In this document: piece by piece, positions 109 to 44,778 of the stretch
Position numbering within the stretch: position 1 is the stretch's first letter
How the letters are laid out: each line of letters begins with the position of its first letter
Origin: Candidatus Gottesmanbacteria bacterium RIFCSPHIGHO2_02_FULL_39_14
Lineage (GTDB): Bacteria; Patescibacteriota; Microgenomatia; 2-02-FULL-39-11
Assembly (NCBI GenBank): GCA_001779205.1
Contig: MFJM01000062.1
Span: 1 to 45,829 of the forward strand
Direction: 5' to 3'
Length of the DNA stretch: 45,829 nt
Translations under genes and position numbers: made by a program
The notes under the pieces: model-generated
Seen by the model: only the letters and a program-made list of their open reading frames with translations
The model's database searches: none
Told to the model about the DNA's origin: nothing

Positions 109-144
109 TTGACAAAATGTATAAAAAGCATACAATAATTGTAT
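109..144 (+). promoter_or_regulatory. Sigma70-like promoter with overlapping palindromic operator for the RHH/PIN operon
   Basis: TTGACA (109..114), 16-nt spacer, TACAAT (131..136). A perfect 7-1-7 palindrome ATACAAT-A-ATTGTAT (130..144) overlaps the -10 and abuts the ATG at 145. Confidence 0.55.
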
Positions 145-408
145 ATGCAGACACAAACGTTAAATATTGCTTTACCTAAAGAGCTTGTTAAACAAGTTGA
201 TAAAGTGGCCGCCAAAGAATTCCGGAACCGCAGCGAACTTATCAGGGAAGTCTTAAGGATATATCTGGAAGACAAAAACGAATGGGAGGAAATATTCCGG
301 TTGGGTGAAATAACGATGAAAAGGATAGGAATTAAGAGCGAGAAAGATATCGATAAAATAGTATTAGAATATAGACATGGCCGTAGAAAGATTAAGAGTA
401 CTCCTTGA
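145..408 (+). CDS. Ribbon-helix-helix (CopG/MetJ-like) antitoxin
   Basis: The N-terminal 'LNIALPKELVKQVDKVAAKEFRNRSELIREVLRIYL' fits a beta-strand/helix/helix RHH pattern. The gene overlaps the downstream PIN gene by 32 nt. First ATG is at 145; the track ORF starts at TTG 139. Confidence 0.8.
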   Translation: MQTQTLNIALPKELVKQVDKVAAKEFRNRSELIREVLRIYLEDKNEWEEIFRLGEITMKRIGIKSEKDIDKIVLEYRHGRRKIKSTP

Positions 409-799
409 TACCAATATTTTAATATCGGCAATTGGATTTGGAGGTAAACCGAGAAAAATATTACAACATGTTTTAAAAAAGAAAATTATAGGAGTAACTT
501 CTTCTATTTTATTGGCAGAACTTGAAGATGTCTTAAATAAAAAATTTACCTTATTGTCACCTCATTTTGAACGGATAAATAAGTTGATCAGGAAGAGATT
601 TTATTTAGTGAAACCCACAGAAGAAATTCGTATCTTAAAGGATGATGATGATAATCGGGTATTGGAAGCAGCAAAGAAAGCTTCGTGCAGTTTTATTGTA
701 ACTGGAGACAAAGAATTATTAGATTTAAAAAACTTTAAAAATATTAAAATAGTTACTGCTGATCAATTTTATAAGTTCTTAACAGAAGAAGAGGTCTAG
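377..799 (+). CDS. PIN-domain toxin (VapC-like ribonuclease)
   Basis: 'VLLDTNILISA' near the N-terminus, 'LAELEDV', 'DDDDNRVLEAA' and 'IVTGDKELL' give the four acidic PIN positions. Size is about 140 aa and it is paired with an upstream RHH gene. Confidence 0.85.
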   Translation: MAVERLRVLLDTNILISAIGFGGKPRKILQHVLKKKIIGVTSSILLAELEDVLNKKFTLLSPHFERINKLIRKRFYLVKPTEEIRILKDDDDNRVLEAAKKASCSFIVTGDKELLDLKNFKNIKIVTADQFYKFLTEEEV

Positions 800-982
800 C
801 CTAAGAATACACTGACATTAACAGACATTATCCTTAACTTTTTTATTGTTGGTATTAATTTGCTTTTTATTGACACTCTTTGAAAAGGTATGGCAAATTG
901 AAATTATGTTAAAAATCATATACAAATGAAATATGAATATATTTTTGCAGAAGAAGAGAGCAACAGAATCATTAATTGAAGA

Positions 983-1171
983 ATGCATTATACGGGGCGG
1001 ACCTTAAAATCCGTGAAAATAATAAGAGAAGATCAAAATTCCCTGGTTTTAAAAGACAATAATTTAATCGCTTTTTTTGCCGGAATAGTTTTTGCTTTAA
1101 GCGGAATTCAGATTATTTTCAATCCTTCTAAATCTATCAATTCAATACCGATCTGGTCTGGAATAGATTGA
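983..1171 (+). CDS. Small hypothetical protein with one hydrophobic segment
   Basis: 62-aa ORF with the hydrophobic stretch 'LIAFFAGIVFALSGIQIIF'. No recognisable family. Same strand as the downstream ORFs. Confidence 0.3.
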   Translation: MHYTGRTLKSVKIIREDQNSLVLKDNNLIAFFAGIVFALSGIQIIFNPSKSINSIPIWSGID

Positions 1172-1203
1172 TAATATAATCATTTGACATTATATTTATT
1201 ATT

Positions 1204-1695
1204 ATGGCAGATATTGGTCGTGATAGACTACCGCTACCACACCCGCCGGAAATAAATGCAAAAGAAGCAGGTGTAACTCCTTTGACTTCTGACGAACTCA
1301 GAAGAAGAGCTGAGGCCAGATCAGAAAAGCTTGCCCGAATCAAATTGAAAGTACATAATGCCTTGGAAAATTTCCGAAACGGTAAAATAAGCGAGAATAA
1401 TATAGAATCACTCAATCCTTCAAGAATTGTAAATACCGATACAGAACAGACAGAATCATCAAAGGCACAAGAATTGTTAAAAGCCATATTTCAAAAAAAA
1501 CAGGGAATTGGAGAATTTGTTAACCAGGCAGTAATGACTAACATGCAAAGAATAAGAAGATCTCAATTATCTGCAACACAAAAATGGCATAATTTAAAGA
1601 CTCAAATAAAACGAGGGGTAGTTTCTCCCAACTTAGAAAATGGGCTTAAAACTTTATTTTGTCAGAACCTGAAGCGCATTCCGGCAAGAGTATAA
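1204..1695 (+). CDS. Hypothetical protein (charged, helical-looking)
   Basis: 163-aa ORF, K/E/R-rich, with no motif I recognise. An extended -10-like TGATAATAT lies about 25 nt upstream (1170..1178). Confidence 0.5.
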   Translation: MADIGRDRLPLPHPPEINAKEAGVTPLTSDELRRRAEARSEKLARIKLKVHNALENFRNGKISENNIESLNPSRIVNTDTEQTESSKAQELLKAIFQKKQGIGEFVNQAVMTNMQRIRRSQLSATQKWHNLKTQIKRGVVSPNLENGLKTLFCQNLKRIPARV

Positions 1696-1713
1696 AATAA
1701 GCCTAATTTTTTT

Positions 1714-2040
1714 ATGGATGATCTCTTTGAAAAATATAAACAAAGAATAAATTCTCTTCCTATTTCTGAAGAGGAAAAAGATAAGCTTTTTAATAATTTT
1801 GCAACCGAACTTCAATTCAATTTAACCAATGCTTTCGCAGATACTTTAACTGACGAACAATTGAAAAAAATTGATGAGGCAGTCAATGATGAAGAAACTC
1901 TCAGAATATATTTTTCAATTTTAAACGAATCATTAGAACTTCCTGAATTTCTGGATTTTATTGAACAGACTTATACGGATATCATGACTAAAACTTTAAG
2001 CTCACTACCTGAATTTACCAATCAACCATCCCTAAAATAA
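1714..2040 (+). CDS. Small acidic hypothetical protein
   Basis: 108-aa ORF rich in D/E/L ('EEEKDKLFNNFATELQFNL...'). No enzyme motifs. It lies 18 nt after the previous ORF. Confidence 0.55.
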   Translation: MDDLFEKYKQRINSLPISEEEKDKLFNNFATELQFNLTNAFADTLTDEQLKKIDEAVNDEETLRIYFSILNESLELPEFLDFIEQTYTDIMTKTLSSLPEFTNQPSLK

Positions 2041-2091
2041 CACTTCTCTCCCCATGAAAAATAGAATTATATACTCTATACTGTAGTTGTG

Positions 2092-2805
2092 ATGAAGAAA
2101 AGTATCGGGCTTTGGCTAATTATTTTTGTATTCATTCTCTTCTTTTCAAGCTATAAAATGGCTTTTGCACAAACAGATCCGCCAACTCCCAACCCGACTG
2201 ATTATAAATTTGATATCAGCGGACCAACTATTACACCTCCCGATTATTCAAAGAATGAATGCCCTATATGCGGGGCGGGGCAATTCTGGTCAAGTGATCA
2301 CGGCTGCTGTAAATTTGATATAAATTTTTCTTCCGCATCATCCTTTAATATTGTCTGCGAGCAGCCGTCAATTGAAGTCTGCACGTATGATAAATTCTGT
2401 ATATCCGGAAAGGGTTGTTTATTAGGAGGTACAAAATTGAGCACCTTTAACCCTTCAGAATTATGCAACAAGCTGATTGTGCCTGAGGAGAATTCTCAAT
2501 GTTTAACCTGCATGCAGGATAATGAACACGTCTGGACGGCAATCGGATGCATACCGATCGGTTTGGCCAACCTTATTTCATCATATTTGGTTAAATTGGT
2601 GATGAGTATCGGCGGAGCCGCTGGATTTCTGGTTTTTCTTTACGGATCATATTTAATTCTGACTTCCGGTGACGATGTAGAAAGAGTAAAACTTGGCAGA
2701 AAATATATTACATCTTCACTTAAAGGTATAATCCTTATTATCTTCGGATTTCTTATATTCAGAATTATTACTGTAGATATACTAAAAATTCCCGGGTTTG
2801 AGTAG
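2092..2805 (+). CDS. Secreted Cys-rich protein with a C-terminal VirB2/TrbC-like (T4SS-pilin-like) two-helix membrane module
   Basis: Signal peptide 'KKSIGLWLIIFVFILFFSSYKMAFA/QT'. About 130-aa ectodomain with 12 Cys. The C-terminal 'GGAAGFLVFLYGSYLILTSGDDVERVKLGRKYITSSLKGIILIIFGFLIF' has the TM-loop-TM layout of VirB2/TrbC-type pilins. ATG at 2092 (GTG at 2089). Confidence 0.6.
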   Translation: MKKSIGLWLIIFVFILFFSSYKMAFAQTDPPTPNPTDYKFDISGPTITPPDYSKNECPICGAGQFWSSDHGCCKFDINFSSASSFNIVCEQPSIEVCTYDKFCISGKGCLLGGTKLSTFNPSELCNKLIVPEENSQCLTCMQDNEHVWTAIGCIPIGLANLISSYLVKLVMSIGGAAGFLVFLYGSYLILTSGDDVERVKLGRKYITSSLKGIILIIFGFLIFRIITVDILKIPGFE

Positions 2806-2810
2806 CAATA

Positions 2811-4469
2811 TTAAGTTTTTCCTTCTCCTTCTGATGGCATATGGGGAACTAATGGAGGTTCTTCAGGTTTCTTCGGATTTACAGTTCCAGGCTTATGGAA
2901 TATTTGACCGATTTTGGTCATTCCTCCTGAGGCTGCGCTACTATATGCATGAGCTATTGTCGGCAGGAACGGAATAATTGAAGCAACCACTCCTAAAATT
3001 GATGCAGGGGTTGTAGGAAAATTCACAAGCGTGTACTCAGGAATAATAGATTTTTTAATCCGGTCAATTATTGCCGGAATGGCCATTAAAACACCGATGG
3101 AGACAAATGAAGATAACACCGTCTGAGTGATGCCCGACAGAGGAGGAGGAAGAAAGGCATTTCCCGTTGAAGAGACTGCTTTTATTATATTAGCTCCGGC
3201 CAGAAAAAGAACCGCTAAAAGCGGAAAAGTAATAATATTAGCCAGCAACCTTTTTAACCATTTGGAAAACTGATTTTTTCCGGGGAAAATATCGGCCAGC
3301 AATAAAAAAGGGGCAAAAACAACGCCAAAGACTATTTCGATATACGAACCAATCAGAGTAAATAAAATCCTGAAATATAGAAATAAAAGAGCAAAATAAA
3401 TGGCAACGATTAAAACTAACTGTTCAAGTTTTTCGATTATTTGCGATGCAAGCCAACCGCTTAAGGGTATAGCCAAACCGCCTGCAGCCAGAGCTCCCGG
3501 GTCAAATTCCAAAGCAAAAAATCTGGTTTCAATGAAAGTAACTATATCGTGTAAGGCTGAAGCAACATTAGGATAAATCTGCATTCCAAGCATAAATGTT
3601 AAATTATCTTTGATCAGATTACGGACGGTATCGGGGATTATTTTTAAAAAGCTGTCGACAAAAGCATAGGGATTTGATTGAATAGTCAGAAAGTCAAAAA
3701 TTTCTCCCGGACTTGTATGACCGTATAAAGATTCAACCAGCTGGGCATCAACCAGATTATTGGTTCTGGCAATCTGAAATACAACCATTAAAGACAGGTA
3801 CATCAGATCGATAAAAAATCCGGCGATGGCAAAGGAAAAAGTTACTGTCAAAACAACCAAAACTGCTTTTAAAATAGTTTTTTCTATATCAATAGAAATA
3901 TTAGGATCGATTTTGAAACGGAATATATAAAGAAATCCGGTAATCAGAAGAGCTATAATGATCAAACTGTAAGCGATATTGCGGCTAATTGACCAGAAGG
4001 ACAGATAGGCTGAGAGTGAAGTCATTCCAAGTCCGGTTGCCTGGGCATAGACTTTGCCACCCATGGAAACATCCGACAGTTTATTCATCAGGGCAAAACT
4101 AAAGGAAGCCGGCGGATTGGCATAGGGAATAATAAAAAGATTGGAGGCAACTCCAAGCAAACCGTTTTTAAAATAATCATGGTTTTTATCTAATTTGAGT
4201 TCAACAGGTAATTTGGCTCCTTTTTTTAAAGATTCCTCCGAAAAACACTTCTCACCGACAATAATACAGGTCACCAGATGCAGATTTGTTACCCAACCGA
4301 TTAATTTTTCCGAATAATGACGGTTAAGATCCGTTGCCGACTGCGTTGCTATTTGAGCAGAGGGTGAGGTTTGGATGGATGTGGCAGATTGTGAATATAC
4401 AGGAGGGGCGGAAAAAATAATTAGGGGAAAAATCAGCAAAAAGATAAAGAGGTTTTTAATAAAGCTCAT
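2811..4469 (-). CDS. Polytopic membrane protein with signal peptide (tentatively VirB6/TrbL-like)
   Basis: 552 aa. N-terminal 'MSFIKNLFIFLLIFPLIIFSAPPVYSQ', at least 8 long hydrophobic segments and a Pro-rich C-terminal tail 'NPKKPEEPPLVPHMP'. The family assignment rests only on topology and on adjacency to the pilin-like gene. Confidence 0.6.
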   Translation of the reverse strand: MSFIKNLFIFLLIFPLIIFSAPPVYSQSATSIQTSPSAQIATQSATDLNRHYSEKLIGWVTNLHLVTCIIVGEKCFSEESLKKGAKLPVELKLDKNHDYFKNGLLGVASNLFIIPYANPPASFSFALMNKLSDVSMGGKVYAQATGLGMTSLSAYLSFWSISRNIAYSLIIIALLITGFLYIFRFKIDPNISIDIEKTILKAVLVVLTVTFSFAIAGFFIDLMYLSLMVVFQIARTNNLVDAQLVESLYGHTSPGEIFDFLTIQSNPYAFVDSFLKIIPDTVRNLIKDNLTFMLGMQIYPNVASALHDIVTFIETRFFALEFDPGALAAGGLAIPLSGWLASQIIEKLEQLVLIVAIYFALLFLYFRILFTLIGSYIEIVFGVVFAPFLLLADIFPGKNQFSKWLKRLLANIITFPLLAVLFLAGANIIKAVSSTGNAFLPPPLSGITQTVLSSFVSIGVLMAIPAIIDRIKKSIIPEYTLVNFPTTPASILGVVASIIPFLPTIAHAYSSAASGGMTKIGQIFHKPGTVNPKKPEEPPLVPHMPSEGEGKT

Positions 4470-4506
4470 TTATTTAACTATACTTAAGTTGCATAGTCAC
4501 ATCAAG

Positions 4507-6579
4507 ATGACTTATGCTAAATATATGCAAACAGTCAATCCGCAACTGCCGAATATGGAAATTCCCCAAAATCTGGAAAGATCAGTCGGCACTACTTTTT
4601 TCCAACAGCATCTGATTGCGAGTTTTGACAGCCAAAGCCGAACTTTGAGTGAAAGCAATTTTCTGAAGACTGAAGCACCGGCATTAACAAGAACGCAAAC
4701 ATTAGATTTATTAATTTCCCTGCAAAGGAACGAAGCCGACTATGCTACTTTTTTCGATAAACTGCCTAACATTACTCTTCATAATCCCGATGTAATACAA
4801 CCGGATATTCCGCTTCAACCGACAGACGAAAAATTAACCGGGATAATAAACATGCTGGCGGAACCAAAAGGAGAAACAAGCTGGATAGAAATATGCAAAA
4901 AATATTCAGGTAGCGGACGAGGAATAATTCAGCTAGCCGATGATTTAATAAAATCAAATCCCAATATCGGAGAAGCGGAATTTAGAGAAATCCTTCAACT
5001 ATTCCACGGGGATTTGAGAACTGAAGCTTACCTGGAAATGGCAAGACTGGACAGAATTTCAGGGCAGAATCCGGAGACTTGGGAATCTTTTTTGGGAGAA
5101 GTTTCCAGAAGCCAAATAAAACCGCAGGACTCGGAATTAAAATTACTGACAATAGGAAACGACGAAGTATTGAGAGCAAATACGGTAAAGTTTATTGAAA
5201 AGCAATCACAATTATTGAAACATTTAAAATTAAGAAGAAGTAGTGAAGATCCGTTTCTGATAATTGATAAACACGGTAAAAAATATGATCTGCAAAATCG
5301 TTCTGAAGCAAAGAGATTGTGGGAGGATTATCTGGTAATCAGGGGAGGAAGCGGTGTTACCTGGGTGGAGAAGGATTTATATAAAGTATTGGAACTTCCG
5401 CGAACTGCTATTCCTGACGAAATAAAAAGAGCATTCAGGAACCTGGCAGTAAAATTTCATCCTGACCACAACAAACAACAAGGAGCAGAAGAAAGATTCA
5501 AGGAAATTAACGAAGCTTATAGCATACTTTCGAATCCTGAAAAAAGGGCAAAATATGATAATTTGGGGAATAATGCAGTTGAATCAATATTAAAACCCGA
5601 CGAAAGGCTGGTTAATTTTTACTTCGATCATCTAAAAGGATACACTCCTCCGAAAGATTGGCATCTAGATGACTCGGGCTGGTGGACTAACAGAAGAACC
5701 GGAGAAAAAATCCATCCCCAAACGCCTCAGGGCGCTTACCGGATAATCCAGGAAATTTTGAGAGGGCTTCCTGATATTTGGGAAGACGGGAAAATCGGAC
5801 CGTTCCTAAACAAATACTATAAACAGCCTCGAGCCAAAAAAACACCACCACAAGGTAATCAAAATCGGAGTAAATCCAAATATGAACCGGAGTCAGTAAT
5901 TAATCCGGATAGTTCAGTAGCCGGACGCACGGACGTAGGTCAGAGGGAAAATAATGAGGACAATTATTTCATTTCGCCGGACGGAAAATATTTCGGGGTA
6001 TTCGACGGAGTGGGCGGAGCCAGCAAAGGGGAGGTAGCCAGTAAAATCGCTAAAGAGACTTTTGCTAACAGTTACCAGCGCAGTCTTGACTTTCTAATGC
6101 AGGAAGCAAACACAAATATTTACAGAACGGGAATAGAAAGAGATTTACAGATGGGTACTACAGGAACAGTTGCCAGAATTATAGGGAACAAACTTGAAAT
6201 AAACCATGTGGGAGACAGCCGGGCATATTTAATCAGGGATAAACAGATATACCAATTAACCACGGACCATGTTAATCCTTATAAAATTAACCAGTTGACC
6301 CGAGTGTTAGGCAGAGATCAAGAAGTGAACCCGGACAGACTGCAGTATAATCTGCAGGAGGGTGACCAGATTCTTCTTTGCACTGACGGTCTGACTAGAA
6401 AAGAGTACGGGCCTTCTGATGCCATAAGATACGGGCTTACTGATGCCGAAATATTAGAGGCGGTAGCAGCATCGGCTACACCTAAGGAAAAAGTAAGATG
6501 GCTAATTTACAGGGCAAACAGCAAGGGAGGCCGGGACAATATTACGGTAATTATCAAGAGTTTTACTCTTAAAAAATAG
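4507..6579 (+). CDS. J-domain (DnaJ-like) / PP2C Ser-Thr phosphatase fusion protein
   Basis: J-domain '[65 protein letters not shown]' with an intact HPD. C-terminal PP2C motifs 'RENNEDN', 'FGVFDGVGG', 'GTTGT', 'VGDSRAY', 'LLCTDGL' and 'GGRDNITV'. Start set at ATG 4507 because the track start (4375) overlaps the divergent gene. Confidence 0.85.
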   Translation: MTYAKYMQTVNPQLPNMEIPQNLERSVGTTFFQQHLIASFDSQSRTLSESNFLKTEAPALTRTQTLDLLISLQRNEADYATFFDKLPNITLHNPDVIQPDIPLQPTDEKLTGIINMLAEPKGETSWIEICKKYSGSGRGIIQLADDLIKSNPNIGEAEFREILQLFHGDLRTEAYLEMARLDRISGQNPETWESFLGEVSRSQIKPQDSELKLLTIGNDEVLRANTVKFIEKQSQLLKHLKLRRSSEDPFLIIDKHGKKYDLQNRSEAKRLWEDYLVIRGGSGVTWVEKDLYKVLELPRTAIPDEIKRAFRNLAVKFHPDHNKQQGAEERFKEINEAYSILSNPEKRAKYDNLGNNAVESILKPDERLVNFYFDHLKGYTPPKDWHLDDSGWWTNRRTGEKIHPQTPQGAYRIIQEILRGLPDIWEDGKIGPFLNKYYKQPRAKKTPPQGNQNRSKSKYEPESVINPDSSVAGRTDVGQRENNEDNYFISPDGKYFGVFDGVGGASKGEVASKIAKETFANSYQRSLDFLMQEANTNIYRTGIERDLQMGTTGTVARIIGNKLEINHVGDSRAYLIRDKQIYQLTTDHVNPYKINQLTRVLGRDQEVNPDRLQYNLQEGDQILLCTDGLTRKEYGPSDAIRYGLTDAEILEAVAASATPKEKVRWLIYRANSKGGRDNITVIIKSFTLKK

Positions 6580-6587
6580 GCATCTTT

Positions 6588-7427
6588 ATGAAAGTTAAAG
6601 CAGACAAAAATCCCAAATATATTCCGGACAGGAGAAAAACTTTACAGGCTTTTGCAGGTGGAATAATTCTGTCTGTAATCACCTTAATTCTCTTTTTTTA
6701 TATCATTTTAGTTCCAAGGTACGAAAAAAACTTGGAAAAGCAGGTGGAGGAAAGAACAAATTCTTTTTGGAGAAACCGGGAATACAGAATACCGGTATTG
6801 TCACCTACACCGATAATCAATAATTGCCCAAAATGCCAGGAACAAATATATAACTGGGACAATATCATGGAGTTTTATTCCATTAAAGTTGCTGATCCCG
6901 CCTGGGTAAAACTTGAAAGTAACAGGGTCGGAATAAGATTTGAATATCCGATTGAGGCAAATAAATTAGTCATGTTTGAATTTAATGAATGGGGGGAAAA
7001 CATATCCGATCCGAGCGGAACCGTATTTGTCTGGTCAACAAGAGGGTTAGGTGAAGAATTCGGAGAAGACTATTTTGCACAGGGAGCATCAAAAGATATA
7101 AAAGTCGGCCGCGAGGAGGTATTTTTATACAATTGGACCGAAAGCGAAGGAAAATATTATGTTAATGACACTAACGGCAATTCATATAAAGTAGAAAATA
7201 TTTTCACCAGAGAAATTCCAGCCGGCGGAAGGGCGTTATTGTTTAATACATTATGTTTTTGGGAGTATAAAGGGGGCTGCGAAGAAATAGAATATTCAAA
7301 AACGCTGATTGTCAATTTTCCCTTAAACCATCGAGAAAAAATTGAGAGCATACTATTTAACATACCCGCCGGTTTTACGGATGCCGACATTGAAAGACTG
7401 ATTGAGTCAATTGATTTTATTAAATAA
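6588..7427 (+). CDS. Membrane-anchored hypothetical protein (N-terminal TM, extracytoplasmic domain)
   Basis: 279 aa. TM segment 'AFAGGIILSVITLILFFYIILV' after a basic N-terminus. It starts 8 nt after the J-PP2C stop. No recognisable family. Confidence 0.6.
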   Translation: MKVKADKNPKYIPDRRKTLQAFAGGIILSVITLILFFYIILVPRYEKNLEKQVEERTNSFWRNREYRIPVLSPTPIINNCPKCQEQIYNWDNIMEFYSIKVADPAWVKLESNRVGIRFEYPIEANKLVMFEFNEWGENISDPSGTVFVWSTRGLGEEFGEDYFAQGASKDIKVGREEVFLYNWTESEGKYYVNDTNGNSYKVENIFTREIPAGGRALLFNTLCFWEYKGGCEEIEYSKTLIVNFPLNHREKIESILFNIPAGFTDADIERLIESIDFIK

Positions 7428-7552: not shown

Positions 7553-8071
7553 TTATCTTTTTGGACTTTGTTTCTTTGCCCTCGCTTTTTGGGCTAAGCC
7601 GGCTTTTCTGCGTTCTTTGACTCGGGAGTCTCTAGTTAAAAAACCCTTTTTTCTTAAGATGGGACGAAATTTCTCCTCATCAACTTTGACCAAAGCACGG
7701 GAAATTCCATGAATTAGAGCGCCTAACTGGCCTTGTTTACCTCCTCCGGTAATTTTGGCGGTGACGGCAAAACGGCCGAGAGTATTGGTAGTTCTGAAAG
7801 GTTCAAGATAAATCTTCTGGTAAATTTCGCCAAAAAAATATTTCTCAATGGGAAGCGAATTGACTGATATTTCACCCGCTTTTATTTCCTGATTGCCAAT
7901 TTTAACCTTATCATCACCAGTGATATACAACTTTACCCGGGCACTTGATTCTTTGCGCCGGCCAACAGCGTAATAAAACTCGAGAGTTTTTGACTTTTTA
8001 TCAGCTTTTCCCGCCGCTTGCGGGATCCCGCTGAGGCGGGATTTTTCTTCTTTTTTTTCTTTTTTAGGCAT
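7553..8071 (-). CDS. rpsI: 30S ribosomal protein S9 (with Lys-rich N-terminal extension)
   Basis: 'GRRKESSARVKLY', 'GGGKQGQLGALIHGISRAL', 'LTRDSRVKERRK', C-terminal '...SPKR'. Confidence 0.95.
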   Translation of the reverse strand: MPKKEKKEEKSRLSGIPQAAGKADKKSKTLEFYYAVGRRKESSARVKLYITGDDKVKIGNQEIKAGEISVNSLPIEKYFFGEIYQKIYLEPFRTTNTLGRFAVTAKITGGGKQGQLGALIHGISRALVKVDEEKFRPILRKKGFLTRDSRVKERRKAGLAQKARAKKQSPKR

Positions 8072-23878: not shown

Positions 23879-25063
23879 TTACTTAAGAATTTTCGTGATC
23901 ACTCCGGCACCGACCGTATGACCACCTTCCCGAATAGCAAATCTTTGACCTTCTTCAAGAGCAACAGGGACTATCAATTTTACCGTCATTTTGGCATTGT
24001 CCCCTGGCATAACCATCTCCACGCCTTTTGGTAAAGCAACCTCAGCTGTAACGTCTGTCGTCCTGATATAAAATTGCGGACGGTAACCGGTGAAGAAAGG
24101 AGTATGTCTACCGCCTTCTTCTTTGGTTAAAATATAAGCCTCAGCTTCAAATTCGGTATGAGGGGTGATAGTACCGGGCTTAGCAACGACTTGTCCCCTT
24201 TCCACCTGATGTTTTTCAATACCGCGTAAAAGAATACCTGTATTGTCTCCGGCCATAGTTTCGGTGAGGGACTTTCTGAACATTTCAATGCCGGTGATAA
24301 CCGTTTTTTGAGTTGCTTTAATGCCGACAATTTCGACTTCTTCGTTTATTTTTAATTTGCCGCGTTCGACACGACCGGTGACGACGGTTCCTCTTCCTTT
24401 AATGGAGAAGACATCCTCAATAGGCATAAGGAACGGTTTCTCGGTATCCCTAACTGGGGTAGGAATATATTCATCTACGGCTTTCATCAGTTCTTCAACT
24501 GATTTAATAGCTTCTGCATCCCCCTGTAGAGCTTTGAGGGCACTGCCTTTGATTACCGGAATTTTGTCGCCGGGAAAACCGTATTTGGTAAGAAGTTCCC
24601 TGACTTCTATTTCTACCAGATCAAGTAATTCTTTATCCTGGACCATATCCGTTTTATTCATATAAACGACCATGGCAGGAACATTAACCTGACCTGCTAA
24701 AAGGATATGCTCTCTGGTTTGTGGCATAGGACCATCTGGAGAAGAGACAACTAAAATAGCGCCATCCATTTGAGCGGCGCCGGTGATCATATTCTTGATA
24801 TAGTCGGCATGACCCGGGGCATCAATATGAGCATAGTGACGTTTATCGGTTTCATATTCCGAATGATGGATATTAATAGTCACTCCGCGGGCTTTTTCTT
24901 CCGGAGCATTATCAATTTCTTCATATTTAAGAGCTTTAGCCAGTCCTTTGGCAGCTAAAACATGGGTAATGGCTGATGTTAAGGTTGTTTTACCATGATC
25001 AACATGTCCAATGGTACCAATATTAAGATGAGGTTTGGTTCTTTGAAAAACTGCCTGTGCCAT
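23879..25063 (-). CDS. tuf: Elongation factor Tu
   Basis: '[16 protein letters not shown]', '[26 protein letters not shown]', 'NKTDMV', '[14 protein letters not shown]'. Confidence 0.97.
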
Positions 25064-25218: not shown

Positions 25219-25812
25219 TTAATTCTGATAAATTTTCTTTAGGAAGTATTCATGAAATACAGTTGAGGTAAGTTCTGGATGGAAACACGAAGCCAAATAA
25301 TAACTGTTTCCTTTCTTTTGTTCACAGGCGATTATCTCACCCTCGTTTTCGGCAAGTATCTTTACATCTGTCCCGACACTTAATATTTTAGGAGCACGGA
25401 TAAATACCGCGTGAATCCTACCTAAACTTGTATCAATATCTTTTTCAAAAGAATTTATCTGCCTGCCATAAGCATTTCTGTCAATTTCTATATCCATCAA
25501 CTCCAGTGTCTTTTGATCAGGGATTTTATGAATTACACTCTTGGACAACATTATTGCTCCTGCACAGGTACCAAATATATTTTTGACTTTCCCCATATCT
25601 TCCCACATACCTTCACGTTGGCATAGCTTAAAAAGCGTAGTACTTTCACCACCAGGAATGATTAAGGCATCCAGATGGCGAATAATATTTTTTATGCGGA
25701 CAGGGATAACTTTAATATCTAATTGAAGATTTTTAGCGGCATGTTTTGAAGTTTCAATATGTTCTGATACATCGCCATGGAAAGCGAGAATTCCAACTTG
25801 TTTTGATTTCAT
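25219..25812 (-). CDS. pdxT: Pyridoxal 5'-phosphate synthase, glutaminase subunit PdxT
   Basis: 'VGILAFHGDVSEH', 'LIIPGGESTT', 'GTCAGAIML' (catalytic Cys), 'RNAYGRQ', 'FHPELT'. Confidence 0.93.
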   Translation of the reverse strand: MKSKQVGILAFHGDVSEHIETSKHAAKNLQLDIKVIPVRIKNIIRHLDALIIPGGESTTLFKLCQREGMWEDMGKVKNIFGTCAGAIMLSKSVIHKIPDQKTLELMDIEIDRNAYGRQINSFEKDIDTSLGRIHAVFIRAPKILSVGTDVKILAENEGEIIACEQKKGNSYYLASCFHPELTSTVFHEYFLKKIYQN

Positions 25813-25829
25813 AATGAATAATCAGGAAG

Positions 25830-26708
25830 TTAAATACCACGTAAAGCCATTTTTGTTTCCAGAGCAGAAATTTCTTGTCCTTTCATCGCCTCACCTAAAT
25901 CTTCACTGGCTTTAGCTATTTTGTCCGGTTCATAATAATGTGCAGTAGCGTCGACAATAGCTTTGGCTCTTTTTTCCGGATTACTGCTTTTAAAAATTCC
26001 CGAGCCTACAAATACTCCATCAACTCCCAATTGCATACATAAAGCTGCATCAGCTGGTGTAGCAATTCCTCCGGCGGCAAAATTTACAACTGGCAATCTG
26101 CCTAATTTGGCTGTTTTTATTAACAATTCATATGAAACTTTGTATTCTTTAGCTTTTTCTTTTAATTTTTTGATATTTTTTGACTTAATAAATTTCTTCA
26201 ATTCTTCAATACCGGAGTTCACTGCTCTTATATGCTTTACAGCTTCAACAATATTGCCGGTTCCAGCTTCACCTTTTGTCCTTATCATGGCTGCACCTTC
26301 ATCTATTCTGCGTAAAGCTTCTCCTAAATCACGACAACCACAGACAAAGGGCACTTTGAATTTTTTCTTGTCTATGTGAAATTGGGTATCTGCAGGAGTT
26401 AATACTTCGCTTTCATCAACAAAGTCAACCTCAAGAGTTTCTAATATTTGTGCTTCAACAAAATGCCCTATTCTACATTTAGCCATGACTGGTATCGTAA
26501 CTGCAGCTTGGATTTCTTTTATTTTAGTAGGATCCGACATTCTGACTACTCCACCGGTGGCCCGGATATCTGAAGGGACGCGTTCAAGAGCCATTACCGC
26601 TACCGCACCTGCTTTTTCGGCAATTATGGCGTGTTCAGCATTAACCACATCCATAATAACTCCACCTTTTAACATCTGGGCTAAATTTTTTCCAAGTCTA
26701 TTATTCAT
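25830..26708 (-). CDS. pdxS: Pyridoxal 5'-phosphate synthase, lyase subunit PdxS
   Basis: '[49 protein letters not shown]', '[16 protein letters not shown]', '[10 protein letters not shown]', '[11 protein letters not shown]', '[14 protein letters not shown]', '[10 protein letters not shown]'. Confidence 0.96.
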
Positions 26709-26781: not shown

Positions 26782-28902
26782 CTATCCGCGGACGACTTGG
26801 GGGTTGGTGGCGCCGACTATTTTTTCGGTGATATTTTTGGGTACTTCTTCGTAATGGGACGGTTCCATGTAATAAGTGGCTCTTCCTTGGGAAAGTGATC
26901 TTAAGATGGTAGCATACCCGGATAGTTCTGCCAGGGGGACCAGACAATTGATGATGGAAACTTTGCCTCTTTTTTCGGTTCCCAATATTTGAGCGCGTTT
27001 GCTGGAAAGGTCCCCTATGACTTTTCCCATAAATTCATCCGGAGTGGTAACTTCAACCTTCATAATCGGTTCCAGCAGAATTAGACCTGCCTGTTTGACA
27101 GCATTCTGCAGAGCCATACTGCCGGCAATTTTAAAGGCAATGTCGGATGAGTCAACATCATGATAAGTTCCATCATAAAGGGTAACTGTAATATCAACCA
27201 GAGGGTATCCTGCCAGGACTCCTTTTTCCAAAGCTTCTTTAACTCCTTTTGCCACAGAAGGAATAAATTCATTGGGAATAGCTCCGCCTTTGATGGCGTC
27301 AACAAATTCATAACCTTCACCCCTGTTTTTAGGTTCAACTCTGACCAAACAATGGCCGTACTGACCACGGCCACCGGTTTGTCTGATGTATTTGCCTTCA
27401 CCTTCAGCTGCCGATTTAATTGTTTCCTTATAGGCAACTTGAGGTGCGCCGACATTGGCCATGACATTAAATTCTCGCTTCATTCGATCAACTAAGACGT
27501 CAAGATGCAGCTCTCCCATACCCCAAATGATTGTTTGGCCTGTCTCAAGGTTTGATTTGATGATAAAAGTCGGATCTTCTTCAGCCAATTTCTGAAGAGC
27601 AGTTCCCATTTTTTCCTGATCAACCTTGGTTTTGGGTTCAATTGCCAGAGAAATAACCGGTTCGGGGAAAGTAATTTTTTCCAGAAGTATAGGATGTTGC
27701 GGATCAGATAAAGTATCTCCGGTACCTGTTTCTTTAAGACCGACAACAGCGACTATTTCTCCGGCAAGAGCTTCTGGTATTTCTTCCCTCTGATTGGCAT
27801 GCATAAGAAGAAGACGACCGACTCTTTCCTGTTTGTCTTTGGTAGAATTCCAGGCATAAGAACCGGAGGTTAATTTGCCGGAATAAATTCTAATATAGGT
27901 TAATTTACCGACGTGAGGATCAAGCTGTATTTTAAAAGCCAAAGCTGAAAACGGTTGATTAGTTTCCGTTTTACGAACCTCTTCCTGATTGTTTTTGGGG
28001 TTGATACCTTTTATTGAAGCTACATCCAAGGGGGAGGGTAAATAATCCACTATAGCATTAAGAAGCGGCTGGACACCTTTATTTCTTAAAGACGAGCCGC
28101 TAAAAATAAGAACAAATTTATAGGCGATGGTAGCCTGACGTAGGGCTTTTTTTAATTCTTCTAGGGAAGGTTCCTTACCGTCAAGGTATTTTTCCAACAA
28201 TTTATCATCAGTTTCGCAAATCTGTTCGATTAATTGATGGCGATATTCTCCGACATCTTTAACCATATCAGCGGGAATTTCATCTTTGACATCAAACTTT
28301 GCTCCCATTTCCATTTCTCCCCAAACCAGACTTTTTTTGGTCAAAAGATCAACTACACCCTTAAATTCATGTTCTTTACCAATGGGAAGATTCATAACAG
28401 CGGGATTAGCACCCAGACGATCTCTGATCATGCCGACTGTGCGATGAAAATCTGCACCAAGCTTATCCATTTTATTGATGAAACAGATACGAGGAACTTT
28501 ATATTTATCAGCCTGATGCCAGACCGTTTCCGATTGTGACTGAACACCTTCTTCAGCGTCAAGAACTGTGACTCCGCCATCCAGGACTCTTAATGACCTT
28601 TCCACTTCGGCTGTAAAATCGACATGTCCTGGAGTATCAATAATATTAATTCTGACGTCCCGCCAAAAAGTTGTAGTGGCAGCAGAGGTGATGGTAATAC
28701 CTCTTTCTTTTTCCTGAGGCATCCAATCCATTTGGGTAGTTCCCTCATCTATATCGCCGATCTTATATGTTCTGCCTGTATAATAAAGTATTCTTTCAGT
28801 AGTGGTTGTTTTACCGGCATCAATGTGAGCGATAATGCCGATATTACGGATTTTATCAAGAGGAACATTTCGGTTTTTAGTAACGGTTAATAATCCTGCC
28901 AT
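26782..28902 (-). CDS. fusA: Elongation factor G
   Basis: '[23 protein letters not shown]', '[13 protein letters not shown]', '[10 protein letters not shown]', '[16 protein letters not shown]'. Confidence 0.97.
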
Positions 28903-43689: not shown

Positions 43690-44778
43690 ATGGTAACTGC
43701 CTCTGATGTATCTTCGGGTGAATTTGCGGAATTAGCCCAACTGCAACAAAAGATCACTAATTCCTCAATTCCAGCCGATCTTCGGATAAAAGCACAAACG
43801 ATGATCGACCGGGCAGCCCTTTCATTCAAATATCACAGCCAATTTATGCAGTTTGACGTGGTGGCCAGTTATATTGACTGGATAACCTCCTTACCCTGGG
43901 AGTCACGAAGTACTGATATTCTGGATATAGAACAGGCTAAACAAGTTTTGGATAAAAATCATTACGGTTTATCTGAACTTAAAGACAGAATTCTGGAATA
44001 TCTGTCGGTAATGAAAATGAATCTTGATCAGGCAAAACTTGATCCAATCAGCAAAAACCATAATTTTGCCAGGGCACCGATTTTATTCTTCGTAGGGTTA
44101 GTCGGAACGGGTAAAACTACCATGGCTATTTCAATTGCTGAGGCTATGGGCAGAAAATTAATGAGAATACCTTTCGGCGGGATGGGGTCGGCACTGGACT
44201 TGAGAGGTGAATCACGGGTACATCCTGATGCCGAAGTCGGTCAGATAATGAAATCATTGAGACGAGCCGGAACAAAAAATCCGGTGATACTCTTAGATGA
44301 ACTGGACAGAGTGGCGGAACATGCCAGGGCTGATATTATGGGGGTTCTAATTGAACTTCTGGATCCGGAACAGAACGTGGCCTTTGTGGATCATTATATT
44401 GACTATCCGTTTGATTTAGCGGAAGTGCTTTTTATTGCCACAGCCAATAATACCAATAACATCTCTACAGCGGTGATGGACAGATTAGAACCGATTCAAA
44501 TGCCCAGTTACAGCGATGATGAAAAAATCATTATCGGCAAATCTTATGTTTATCCCAAAGTTCTAGCGGCTTCAGGACTCACATCTGACCAGTTAACTAT
44601 TGTTGATGGCGTTTGGCCGACAATTGTCCGTCCGCTCGGATTTGACTCAGGTATCAGAACTCTGGAAAGAACCATTGACGGGGTCTGCCGGAAAGTAGCC
44701 AGACAAATAATAGAAAAGAAAATCAATAAAATAATATTAAGTGAGGATAACGTTAAACAATTCCTGCCGACCTGGTAA
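43690..44778 (+). CDS. Stand-alone LonA-type AAA+ ATPase module (no N-terminal LON domain, no protease domain)
   Basis: Collinear with the central part of Lon. 'YIDWITSLPWESRS', 'LDKNHYGLSELKDRILEYL', Walker A 'GLVGTGKT', Walker B 'ILLDELDR', 'LLDPEQNVAFVDHY', 'FIATANN', 'MDRLE', 'GIRTLER'. The ORF stops at 362 aa and rnj starts 20 nt later. Confidence 0.8.
   Translation: MVTASDVSSGEFAELAQLQQKITNSSIPADLRIKAQTMIDRAALSFKYHSQFMQFDVVASYIDWITSLPWESRSTDILDIEQAKQVLDKNHYGLSELKDRILEYLSVMKMNLDQAKLDPISKNHNFARAPILFFVGLVGTGKTTMAISIAEAMGRKLMRIPFGGMGSALDLRGESRVHPDAEVGQIMKSLRRAGTKNPVILLDELDRVAEHARADIMGVLIELLDPEQNVAFVDHYIDYPFDLAEVLFIATANNTNNISTAVMDRLEPIQMPSYSDDEKIIIGKSYVYPKVLAASGLTSDQLTIVDGVWPTIVRPLGFDSGIRTLERTIDGVCRKVARQIIEKKINKIILSEDNVKQFLPTW

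Follow-up and report, generated by a model that had tools for sequence, protein, structure and literature searches.

A conserved pilin and membrane-protein cassette in Microgenomates, a probable part of a type IV secretion-like apparatus

Does the block of genes at positions 983-7427 of the Candidatus Gottesmanbacteria contig MFJM01000062.1 encode part of a secretion or attachment apparatus, and which of its genes belong together? Patescibacteria depend on host cells, and their machine resembling a type IV secretion system (T4SS) is the only one known to be essential to its carrier (PMC10633639, PMC12857230). The stretch analysed, here called the window, is the 45.8 kb that contains this block. 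A first-pass annotation, made from the letters alone, had described the block as an accessory island of seven open reading frames (ORFs) and had suggested that a VirB2-like pilin, a VirB6-like channel and a large multidomain soluble protein in it might form a minimal delivery or attachment module. All seven ORFs of 983-7427 were found where they had been called. We conclude, with moderate confidence, that 1204-6579 is a conserved cassette of one Microgenomates sub-clade, which encodes envelope parts of the Patescibacteria T4SS-like apparatus as a variant of the published system. The cassette is neither a new kind of system nor a mobile island, and the possible newness of the locus falls away, T4SSs with VirB2-like pilins having already been published for Patescibacteria (PMC10633639, PMC12102498).

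Five genes kept together in five lineages

The cassette was followed through five lineages, namely the window, L001, L005/L089, L085 and L086 (L-numbers denote related loci; L005 and L089 come from one population, with 99.4% nucleotide identity). The same five genes are present in all of them, in the same order and orientation and in three different neighbourhoods: a gene for a basic protein of ~140-163 amino acids (aa), one for an acidic protein of ~108 aa, one for a Cys-rich pilin of ~235 aa, a convergent gene of the family to which the 552-aa membrane protein of the window belongs, and a divergent gene for a fusion of a J domain to a PP2C phosphatase domain (J-PP2C). The members in the window are as follows.

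1204..1695, plus strand: basic soluble protein of 163 aa, first gene of the cassette, with positional counterparts in five lineages
1714..2040, plus strand: acidic soluble protein of 108 aa, 55-58% identical in four other lineages
2092..2805, plus strand: Cys-rich VirB2-like pilin (238-aa ORF from GTG 2089), from PF18895 and hydropathy
2811..4469, minus strand: polytopic membrane protein of 552 aa, candidate VirB6-type subunit, from the transmembrane (TM) scan, weak profile matches and gene neighbourhood
4525..6579, plus strand: J-PP2C, cytoplasmic three-part protein (734-aa ORF opens at 4375), from DnaJ and PP2C profiles and orthologue alignment

Identity to the window is 46-67% for the membrane protein and about 27-57% for J-PP2C, and the pilin is 45% identical in L001. 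The 108-aa protein has the most uniform identity over its four relatives of all the cassette members and is acidic in all five lineages (isoelectric point (pI) 4.2 in the window, 4.2-4.4 overall); its Pfam matches are weak and sub-threshold, e.g. DUF5663 with an expectation value (E) of 0.034. For the 163-aa protein there are counterparts of 137-159 aa in all five lineages, just 16-22% identical and uniformly basic (pI 10.4 in the window, 9.8-11.2 overall), and no family match was obtained in Pfam or NCBIfam. Kyte-Doolittle hydropathy scans, from which all the TM and signal segments reported here were derived, found no TM segment in the 163-, 108- and 734-aa proteins. The description of the two small products as soluble proteins of no recognisable family was upheld, neither having a TM segment or a family match over cut-off, and the scans equally bore out the signal or TM features proposed for the 62-, 238-, 552- and 279-aa ORFs.

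The remaining two ORFs of the block, of 62 and 279 aa, and a toxin-antitoxin (TA) pair to its left had no counterparts beside the cassette in other genomes, so that the functional unit is 1204-6579 and not 983-7427; both ORFs, the longer of which encodes an ectoprotein, and the TA pair are outside this unit and peculiar to the window genome. The proposed seven-gene unit thus shrinks to the five genes that are conserved together. Variability at this site had been anticipated, and the left flank does differ between genomes wherever it is visible (the TA pair in the window, pth/phosphoribosyltransferase in L001, an ABC transporter in L089), but the five-gene core is kept and only what surrounds it is exchanged. 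The block as a whole is far beyond a set of chance ORFs, since five of its seven ORFs are conserved elsewhere and the 279-aa protein has 34 representative relatives.

It could still be argued that these genes are functionally unrelated neighbours, J-PP2C serving proteostasis or signalling in general and the small proteins being orphans that lie beside the pair by accident. When ORFs were called and clustered in 84 related loci plus the window (85 in all), J-PP2C was linked to the pilin and the 552-aa family gene in one small clade only (three of the 85 clustered loci; five lineages altogether), its position being held in the larger family by genes for C39-like peptidases, and the 163-aa protein, with 16-22% identity, shows little conservation. 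Against this, the order and orientation of five genes have been kept in five lineages despite the divergence of the membrane protein and J-PP2C given above, and the flanks have been reshuffled around the kept cassette. Retention of the cassette in fast-rearranging candidate phyla radiation (CPR) genomes argues for selection on the linkage, and we regard a fortuitous grouping as improbable.

The pilin, its membrane-protein partner and their family

The pilin most likely starts at ATG 2092, and the gene call on an identical contig is 237 aa long. Its hydrophobic segments lie at residues 1-19, 154-192 and 214-232, the second and third being joined by the charged loop TSGDDVERVKLGRKY, and as judged from the sequence the protein consists of a signal peptide (Sec-type, with predicted cleavage) and a predicted two-helix hairpin of the VirB2 type, between which lies an ectodomain of ~100 aa with 12 Cys. 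The suggestion of a VirB2-like pilin was supported by a match to PF18895 (T4SS_pilin), albeit a borderline one (26.7 bits, the cut-off being 26.6; E 6e-6), that spans aa 167-219 of the 238-aa ORF and profile positions 12-63 of 71; the precomputed annotation rates the same match 'faint' for an identical protein and 'weak' for the L086 orthologue. The window pilin also faintly matches the Mbov_0395 pilin-like family of a Mycoplasma integrative and conjugative element (ICE) in NCBIfam (E 0.25), whose gene number puts it beside the TM proteins of the ICE_Mbov_0396_TM type discussed below. Pilins encoded next to a 552-aa family gene form a distinct long sub-family, typically of ~245 aa with ~12 Cys, nine of which were invariant in 41/41 aligned sequences; the other pilin paralogues are ~110 aa long and mostly free of Cys.

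The 552-aa gene faces the pilin gene tail-to-tail across 5 bp. Its product has a signal-like N-terminal segment and about eight TM segments, at least five being expected of a VirB6 protein, and its AlphaFold2 (AF2) model is all-helical with a mean predicted local distance difference test score (pLDDT) of 68.6, rising above 80 for roughly residues 150-480. The window protein scored 18.9 bits against TrbL (PF04610; cut-off 25.9) and 18 bits against ICE_Mbov_0396_TM (cut-off 70). A scan of 104 family members (79+25) against Pfam and NCBIfam gave recurrent matches exclusively to polytopic proteins of conjugation systems or T4SSs, any other match being found in a single member. TrbL/VirB6 was matched by two members (best E 5.5e-4) and is the only Pfam family of which this is true, ICE_Mbov_0396_TM by five (best E 5.7e-5), MMCAP2_0566_fam by five (best E 1.5e-5) and conj_pls20_p028 by one. 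Transporter and envelope-biogenesis families, which the first-pass annotation had named as the assignments that would speak against its proposal, did not recur for the 552-aa family.

This family is large. At least 592 related stretches were found (one genome per GTDB species), nearly all of them from Roizmanbacteria and other Microgenomates. A T4SS_pilin-type gene is present in 81/84 related loci, and in 59/84 a convergent Cys-rich pilin gene lies directly downstream of the 552-aa family gene, as it does in the window. The commonest context, seen in 45/85 loci, runs through recF, a kinase-methyltransferase gene, a short pilin gene, a long clpB and 2-3 Peptidase_C39_2-like genes to the 552-aa family gene, and continues with the Cys-rich pilin, a soluble protein of 1100-1400 aa, jag, yidC and leuS. 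In the window clade J-PP2C stands where the C39-like genes do, and the two small proteins stand where the giant soluble protein does. The size of the family and this context indicate that the pair formed by the pilin and the 552-aa family protein is a conserved chromosomal feature of the lineage rather than a sporadic accessory trait.

Some members of the family lie close to recognisable T4SS genes. A VirB4-like ATPase (P-loop_TraG at E 1e-26, AAA_10) is encoded within 10 kb of the family gene in five loci (L057, L059, L060, L064 and L083), and pilin arrays lie beside the family gene in four of them, none being present in the fetched stretch of L059. A VirD4-like coupling protein is encoded near the family gene in L079.

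Several observations weigh against assigning the cassette to a T4SS-like apparatus. Not one of the profile matches reached its curated cut-off, and about 10% of the 104 members match at all. In hhalign, a family profile of 112 sequences aligned to 116 Agrobacterium-type VirB6 proteins with a probability of 0.2% (E 0.31), and a profile of 25 sequences aligned to the single VirB6 of pTiC58 (Agrobacterium) with a probability of 0.1%; the VirB6 set consisted only of Rhizobiales-type proteins (MPF_T VirB6, Neff 3.7), which makes this a narrow test. Comparison of the family profile with PDB sequences returned neither VirB6 nor any meaningful match. Foldseek found nothing at E <= 1e-3 for the model of the 552-aa protein, and the template-modelling (TM) scores to TrwI were 0.19-0.38; the target with the top probability was nevertheless TrwI/VirB6 of R388 (7o3v_F; probability 0.75, E 0.33, TM-scores 0.19/0.33), and several VirB6 chains recurred in the results. 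VirB2 proteins are usually ~100-130 aa long with no extra domain, whereas the pilin, at 238 aa with its 12-Cys ectodomain, is twice the usual size, and its margin over the PF18895 cut-off is 0.1 bit. The window holds no gene for VirB4, VirB3, VirB8 or VirD4, which agrees with the original remark that VirB4 and VirD4 are missing from it, and no VirB4-like gene was found within 10 kb in 79/84 related loci. For J-PP2C no kinase, FHA protein or phospho-substrate was identified, and what connects it and the 108- and 163-aa proteins to such an apparatus is their conserved adjacency alone.

These results could be accommodated by a rather different view, in which the 552-aa protein is not a VirB6 homologue and forms, with the Cys-rich pilin-like protein, a T4SS-independent envelope module (a surface anchor, an adhesin or an envelope biogenesis factor) that needs no VirB4. 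The sub-cut-off VirB6-type matches, the negative hhalign comparison with MPF_T VirB6 and the non-significant Foldseek result are all consistent with this, as is the commonest context, in which the pair lies beside yidC-jag, ClpB and C39-like genes with no VirB4-like gene within 10 kb. However, the weak matches from two independent libraries converge on polytopic proteins of monoderm conjugation systems, with no transporter or biogenesis family recurring; five loci have a VirB4-like gene near the family member, and in four of these there are pilin arrays as well; and the partner protein has a bona fide T4SS_pilin domain. On balance we consider an independent module unlikely, although it is the alternative to be taken most seriously.

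Returning to a VirB6-type role, the evidence is mixed, so that the 552-aa protein likely acts like VirB6 but its membership of PF04610 is not shown. The channel proposed in the first-pass annotation is thus sustained in one part, as the only recurrent weak matches are to VirB6 and monoderm conjugation TM proteins and VirB4-like clusters accompany the family in five relatives, and not in the other, as homology to VirB6 was not demonstrated by profiles over cut-off, hhalign or Foldseek. In a published survey, VirB6 homologues were "scarce" in Microgenomatia, "suggesting extreme sequence divergence" (PMC12102498). Being abundant, linked to a pilin, encoded near yidC-jag and faintly TrbL-like, the 552-aa family is a good candidate for this component and probably represents the divergent VirB6 that had been "missing" from Microgenomatia, the 552-aa protein being the best VirB6-like candidate at hand. 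Taken together, the inference of a VirB2/VirB6 pair was substantially right, and it fits the published framework.

The related loci yielded several further observations. Two conserved genes (~300-400 aa and ~220-370 aa; clusters c19 and c22) always lie 5' of the VirB4-like ATPase in L057, L059, L060, L064 and L083, and could encode VirB8/VirB3-type components. Upstream of the VirB6-like gene, at a distance of two to four genes, 37/85 loci conserve a ClpB homologue of 950-1490 aa (e.g. L004 3066-7295, L013 and L066 3450-7166), well over the ~860 aa usual for ClpB. The soluble family of 1100-1400 aa directly follows the Cys-rich pilin gene in 43 loci (e.g. L024 7161-10799 and L006 3253-6873). 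A hidden VirB4 was considered for these proteins and rejected, as they had no Pfam match and no TM segment and a Walker A motif was present in 3/43. Likewise, a link between the 108-aa, 163-aa and J-PP2C N-terminal families and these large proteins was rejected in the absence of credible profile matches in the related loci. In ~50 loci (e.g. L018 8329-9372) the 2-3 Peptidase_C39_2-like genes are found immediately upstream of the VirB6-like gene, in the same orientation; they could be analogues of a cell-wall hydrolase (VirB1-like). Finally, dozens of GTDB-representative metagenome-assembled genomes titled 'uncultured Gammaproteobacteria/Pseudomonadales (binchicken_...)' (L006, L010, L015, L017, L019 and others) carry Roizmanbacteria-type loci, and these titles look taxonomically mislabelled.

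J-PP2C and the surroundings of the cassette

Both domains proposed for the J-PP2C fusion were confirmed with Pfam. The protein comprises a clade-specific N-terminal domain of ~275 aa with an invariant GDLRT motif, a J domain (DnaJ, PF00226; E 3.5e-24, 85.1 bits against a cut-off of 27.8) in which the HPD motif is kept in all five orthologues, and a PP2C Ser/Thr phosphatase domain. The latter matched PF13672/PF00481 at 48.4 and 46.1 bits, both over cut-off (PP2C_2 at E 1.1e-12), and a Stp1-type PP2C profile (E 2e-42). In an alignment of the five orthologues, the metal-binding motifs are complete in the window protein (NNED, FDGVGG, VGDSR, CTDG and RDNIT), and the L005 orthologue has SDD in place of the first ED motif and lacks the last DN motif. 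The second-best NCBIfam match was TopJ, over the J-domain region only. Alignment with the four orthologues places the start at Met51 (nt 4525); the gene therefore does not overlap that of the 552-aa protein, and a divergent intergenic region of 55 bp separates the two. A scan for promoters and terminators found nothing above shuffled expectation.

In 5/5 lineages J-PP2C neighbours the VirB6-like gene and is divergent from it, so the expectation that a large multidomain soluble protein goes with the pilin and channel pair holds throughout the clade. Beyond it, a word-index homologue search with the N-terminal domain (4507-5370) returned nothing, not even the parent protein, though the database searched does contain the 552-aa protein from that contig; a metagenome scan recovered the L005 population again and nothing else.

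The features that flank the cassette in the window are listed below; the RHH/PIN and rpsI borders of the block are real.

139..408, plus strand: RHH (CopG-type) antitoxin, left flank, outside the cassette (Pfam RHH_1, E 4.9e-9)
377..799, plus strand: PIN-domain toxin, left flank, outside the cassette (Pfam PIN_3, E 1.1e-19)
983..1171, plus strand: 62-aa ORF with one weak hydrophobic segment, an unverified gene (ORF list, hydropathy)
6588..7427, plus strand: membrane-anchored protein of 279 aa with a beta-rich ectodomain (hydropathy, AF2 model)
7553..8071, minus strand: rpsI (ribosomal protein S9), 172-aa ORF, right flank (our own reading of the sequence, C-terminal ...RDSRVKERRKAGLAQKARAKKQSPKR)

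The 62-aa ORF has a TM-like segment at 21-39 that is barely over threshold, and neither a family match in Pfam or NCBIfam nor a relative in 88 loci was found for it. The 279-aa ORF is a genuine gene: its 34 representative relatives were found among 1.84 billion proteins, a TM segment is located at 24-42, and the AF2 model is confident (pLDDT 83), with a TM helix and a beta-rich ectodomain for which no significant fold match was found in the PDB. Its gene begins 8 bp past J-PP2C and may be co-transcribed with it. Apparent relatives of this protein beside VirB6-like genes were rejected, as the matches were confined to the TM or low-complexity region. In L086 a gene at 140-1000 (minus strand) for an N-terminally anchored protein of 286 aa lies 3' of J-PP2C in the same orientation, like the 279-aa gene of the window, and no sequence similarity between the two proteins was detectable.

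To the right of rpsI lie the ribosomal/RNA-polymerase superoperon and then nusA, infB, a gene for a DHH protein, pnp and a gene for a Lon-like AAA protein; the large ORFs of the window encode NusA, IF-2, PNPase, EF-G, EF-Tu, RpoB/C, SecY and similar proteins. Inside the str/ribosomal superoperon, between tuf (23879-25063) and fusA (26782-28902), is a vitamin-B6 synthase pair, pdxT (SNO, E 3.5e-46) and pdxS (SOR_SNZ, E 5e-103), at 25219-26708 (minus strand). The Lon-like protein (43690-44778, plus strand; 362 aa) has AAA and Lon_lid domains with no visible Lon protease domain, and could be a truncated or split Lon-like ATPase.

These surroundings bear on the possibility that 983-7427 arrived by horizontal transfer as a mobile or accessory island, for instance a degraded ICE or other conjugative remnant, that was stabilised by the RHH/PIN pair and inserted at the end of the ribosomal operon. 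The TA pair directly adjoins the block, the cassette occurs in three different neighbourhoods, and T4SS-type parts are ancestrally conjugative (PMC12102498); moreover, the G+C content (GC) is 31-32% in the first 2 kb (TA pair, 62-aa ORF and the two small cassette genes) as against 37-42% in most of the window. However, the GC of 2-7 kb equals the window mean, and the window contains no tRNA gene and no integrase, recombinase, relaxase or coupling-protein domain in profile scans, the flanking direct or inverted repeats being short and not beyond chance. Nor is there any plasmid, phage or defence signature, and an origin in defence or phage was rejected, as neither PADLOC nor PHROGs gave a match. 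The antitoxin is absent beside the cassette in L001 and L089, and the toxin has no relative in any related locus fetched. The pilin and VirB6-like pair, by contrast, occupies a conserved chromosomal position in hundreds of species-level genomes. An insertion of this kind appears very improbable, and the label of an accessory or variable island is misleading for a pair that is lineage-wide, found in more than 590 loci and usually placed beside yidC-jag.

Proposed assembly and comparison with known systems

If the cassette does belong to a T4SS-like apparatus, the 552-aa protein would be a strongly diverged membrane platform or channel of the VirB6 type. VirB2-like pilins, inserted by the Sec pathway, would be extracted from the membrane and assembled on or through this platform into a surface filament or conduit for contact with the host cell, and a VirB4-like ATPase, its gene located elsewhere in the genome, would supply the power. 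The Cys-rich pilin, which has a putatively disulfide-rich ectodomain, may be a specialised minor, tip, base or adhesin subunit, analogous to the VirB5-VirB6 stalk of R388. J-PP2C would be a clade-specific cytoplasmic accessory that recruits DnaK through the HPD motif of its J domain and dephosphorylates a Ser/Thr-phosphorylated component, controlling assembly or activity (gating), and the acidic 108-aa and basic 163-aa proteins might be cytoplasmic partners, e.g. an adaptor or chaperone and its client. A bolder version, to which we would give only tentative and somewhat doubtful credence, is that J-PP2C, with its novel N-terminal domain, and the two small proteins constitute a dedicated controller that couples Hsp70 recruitment and dephosphorylation to the Cys-rich pilin and VirB6-like platform, the 552-aa family being at the same time the VirB6 of Microgenomatia. 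To our knowledge, no type IV secretion system has been described as regulated by Hsp70 recruitment together with Ser/Thr dephosphorylation.

If correct, these assignments would fill the VirB6 gap in Microgenomatia, one of the largest classes, and would give structural work a minimal conserved pair of pilin and platform; the J-PP2C neighbour offers a testable lead on how assembly might be regulated in an organism with very few regulators. Should the VirB6 link fail, the pair would still be among the most conserved lineage-specific envelope modules of Microgenomates.

Control of such machines by a Ser/Thr phosphatase or a J-domain protein has precedents in PppA/PpkA-Fha1 of the Pseudomonas H1 type VI secretion system, and in PrpC/PrkC and the J-domain protein TopJ of the Mycoplasma pneumoniae attachment organelle. 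The likeness lies in a PP2C phosphatase or J-domain co-chaperone that is dedicated to assembly of an envelope-spanning or surface organelle; the window protein differs in fusing both activities with a novel N-terminal domain, and its link to a machine is conserved gene adjacency only.

With VirB6/TrbL of Gram-negative T4SSs (PF04610; TrwI of R388, PDB 7O3V), the 552-aa protein shares its character as a polytopic inner-membrane protein encoded near a pilin gene. In R388, VirB6 forms a stalk with the minor pilin-like subunit VirB5, and the strict pairing of the 552-aa family with a special Cys-rich pilin parallels this arrangement. Unlike VirB6, the 552-aa protein is about twice as long (552 against ~295 aa), and its family has an N-terminal secreted region with conserved CxxxGExC and PYANPPAS motifs.

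The best profile matches of the 552-aa family (E down to 1.5e-5) are to ICE_Mbov_0396_TM and MMCAP2_0566_fam of Mycoplasma ICEs, where a protein of ~8 TM segments is encoded beside a small two-helix pilin-like protein (Mbov_0395/MMCAP2_0565) in a wall-less or monoderm, genome-reduced host. We tentatively take these NCBIfam families to correspond to CDS15/CDS16 of the Mycoplasma elements. In a 2025 review the CDS16 protein of Mycoplasma ICEs, with 8 TM segments, is taken to be the VirB6-like component of a minimal apparatus (PMC12857230), in agreement with the best matches of the 552-aa family. The matches are, however, far under cut-off (18 against 70 bits), and the Mycoplasma genes, unlike those of the window, belong to a mobile ICE that also has VirB4, VirD4 and a DDE transposase.

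The closest comparison is with the T4SS-like system of Patescibacteria itself. In Southlakia epibionticum a monoderm-type T4SS with essential VirB2-like pilins is encoded by SEML1_0006-0019 (Wang et al. 2023, PMC10633639). A survey of 3,035 Patescibacteria genomes (Quinonero-Coronel et al. 2025) found VirB2-like pilins and pilin arrays to be widespread and especially abundant in Microgenomatia, T4SS genes often to lie near dnaA, rpmH and rnpA, and relaxases to be absent from most clusters (PMC12102498). The window departs from this system in having one pilin and a VirB6-like gene without VirB4, VirB3, VirB8 or VirD4 in 45.8 kb, in a VirB6-like protein too divergent for standard profiles, in a pilin with an extra 12-Cys ectodomain, and in a cassette that includes the J-PP2C fusion and two small cytoplasmic proteins. 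It shares with it a monoderm CPR host, chromosomal genes, PF18895 pilins together with a VirB6-type polytopic protein and the lack of a relaxase, and some relatives of the window have a VirB4-like ATPase and pilin arrays in one cluster.

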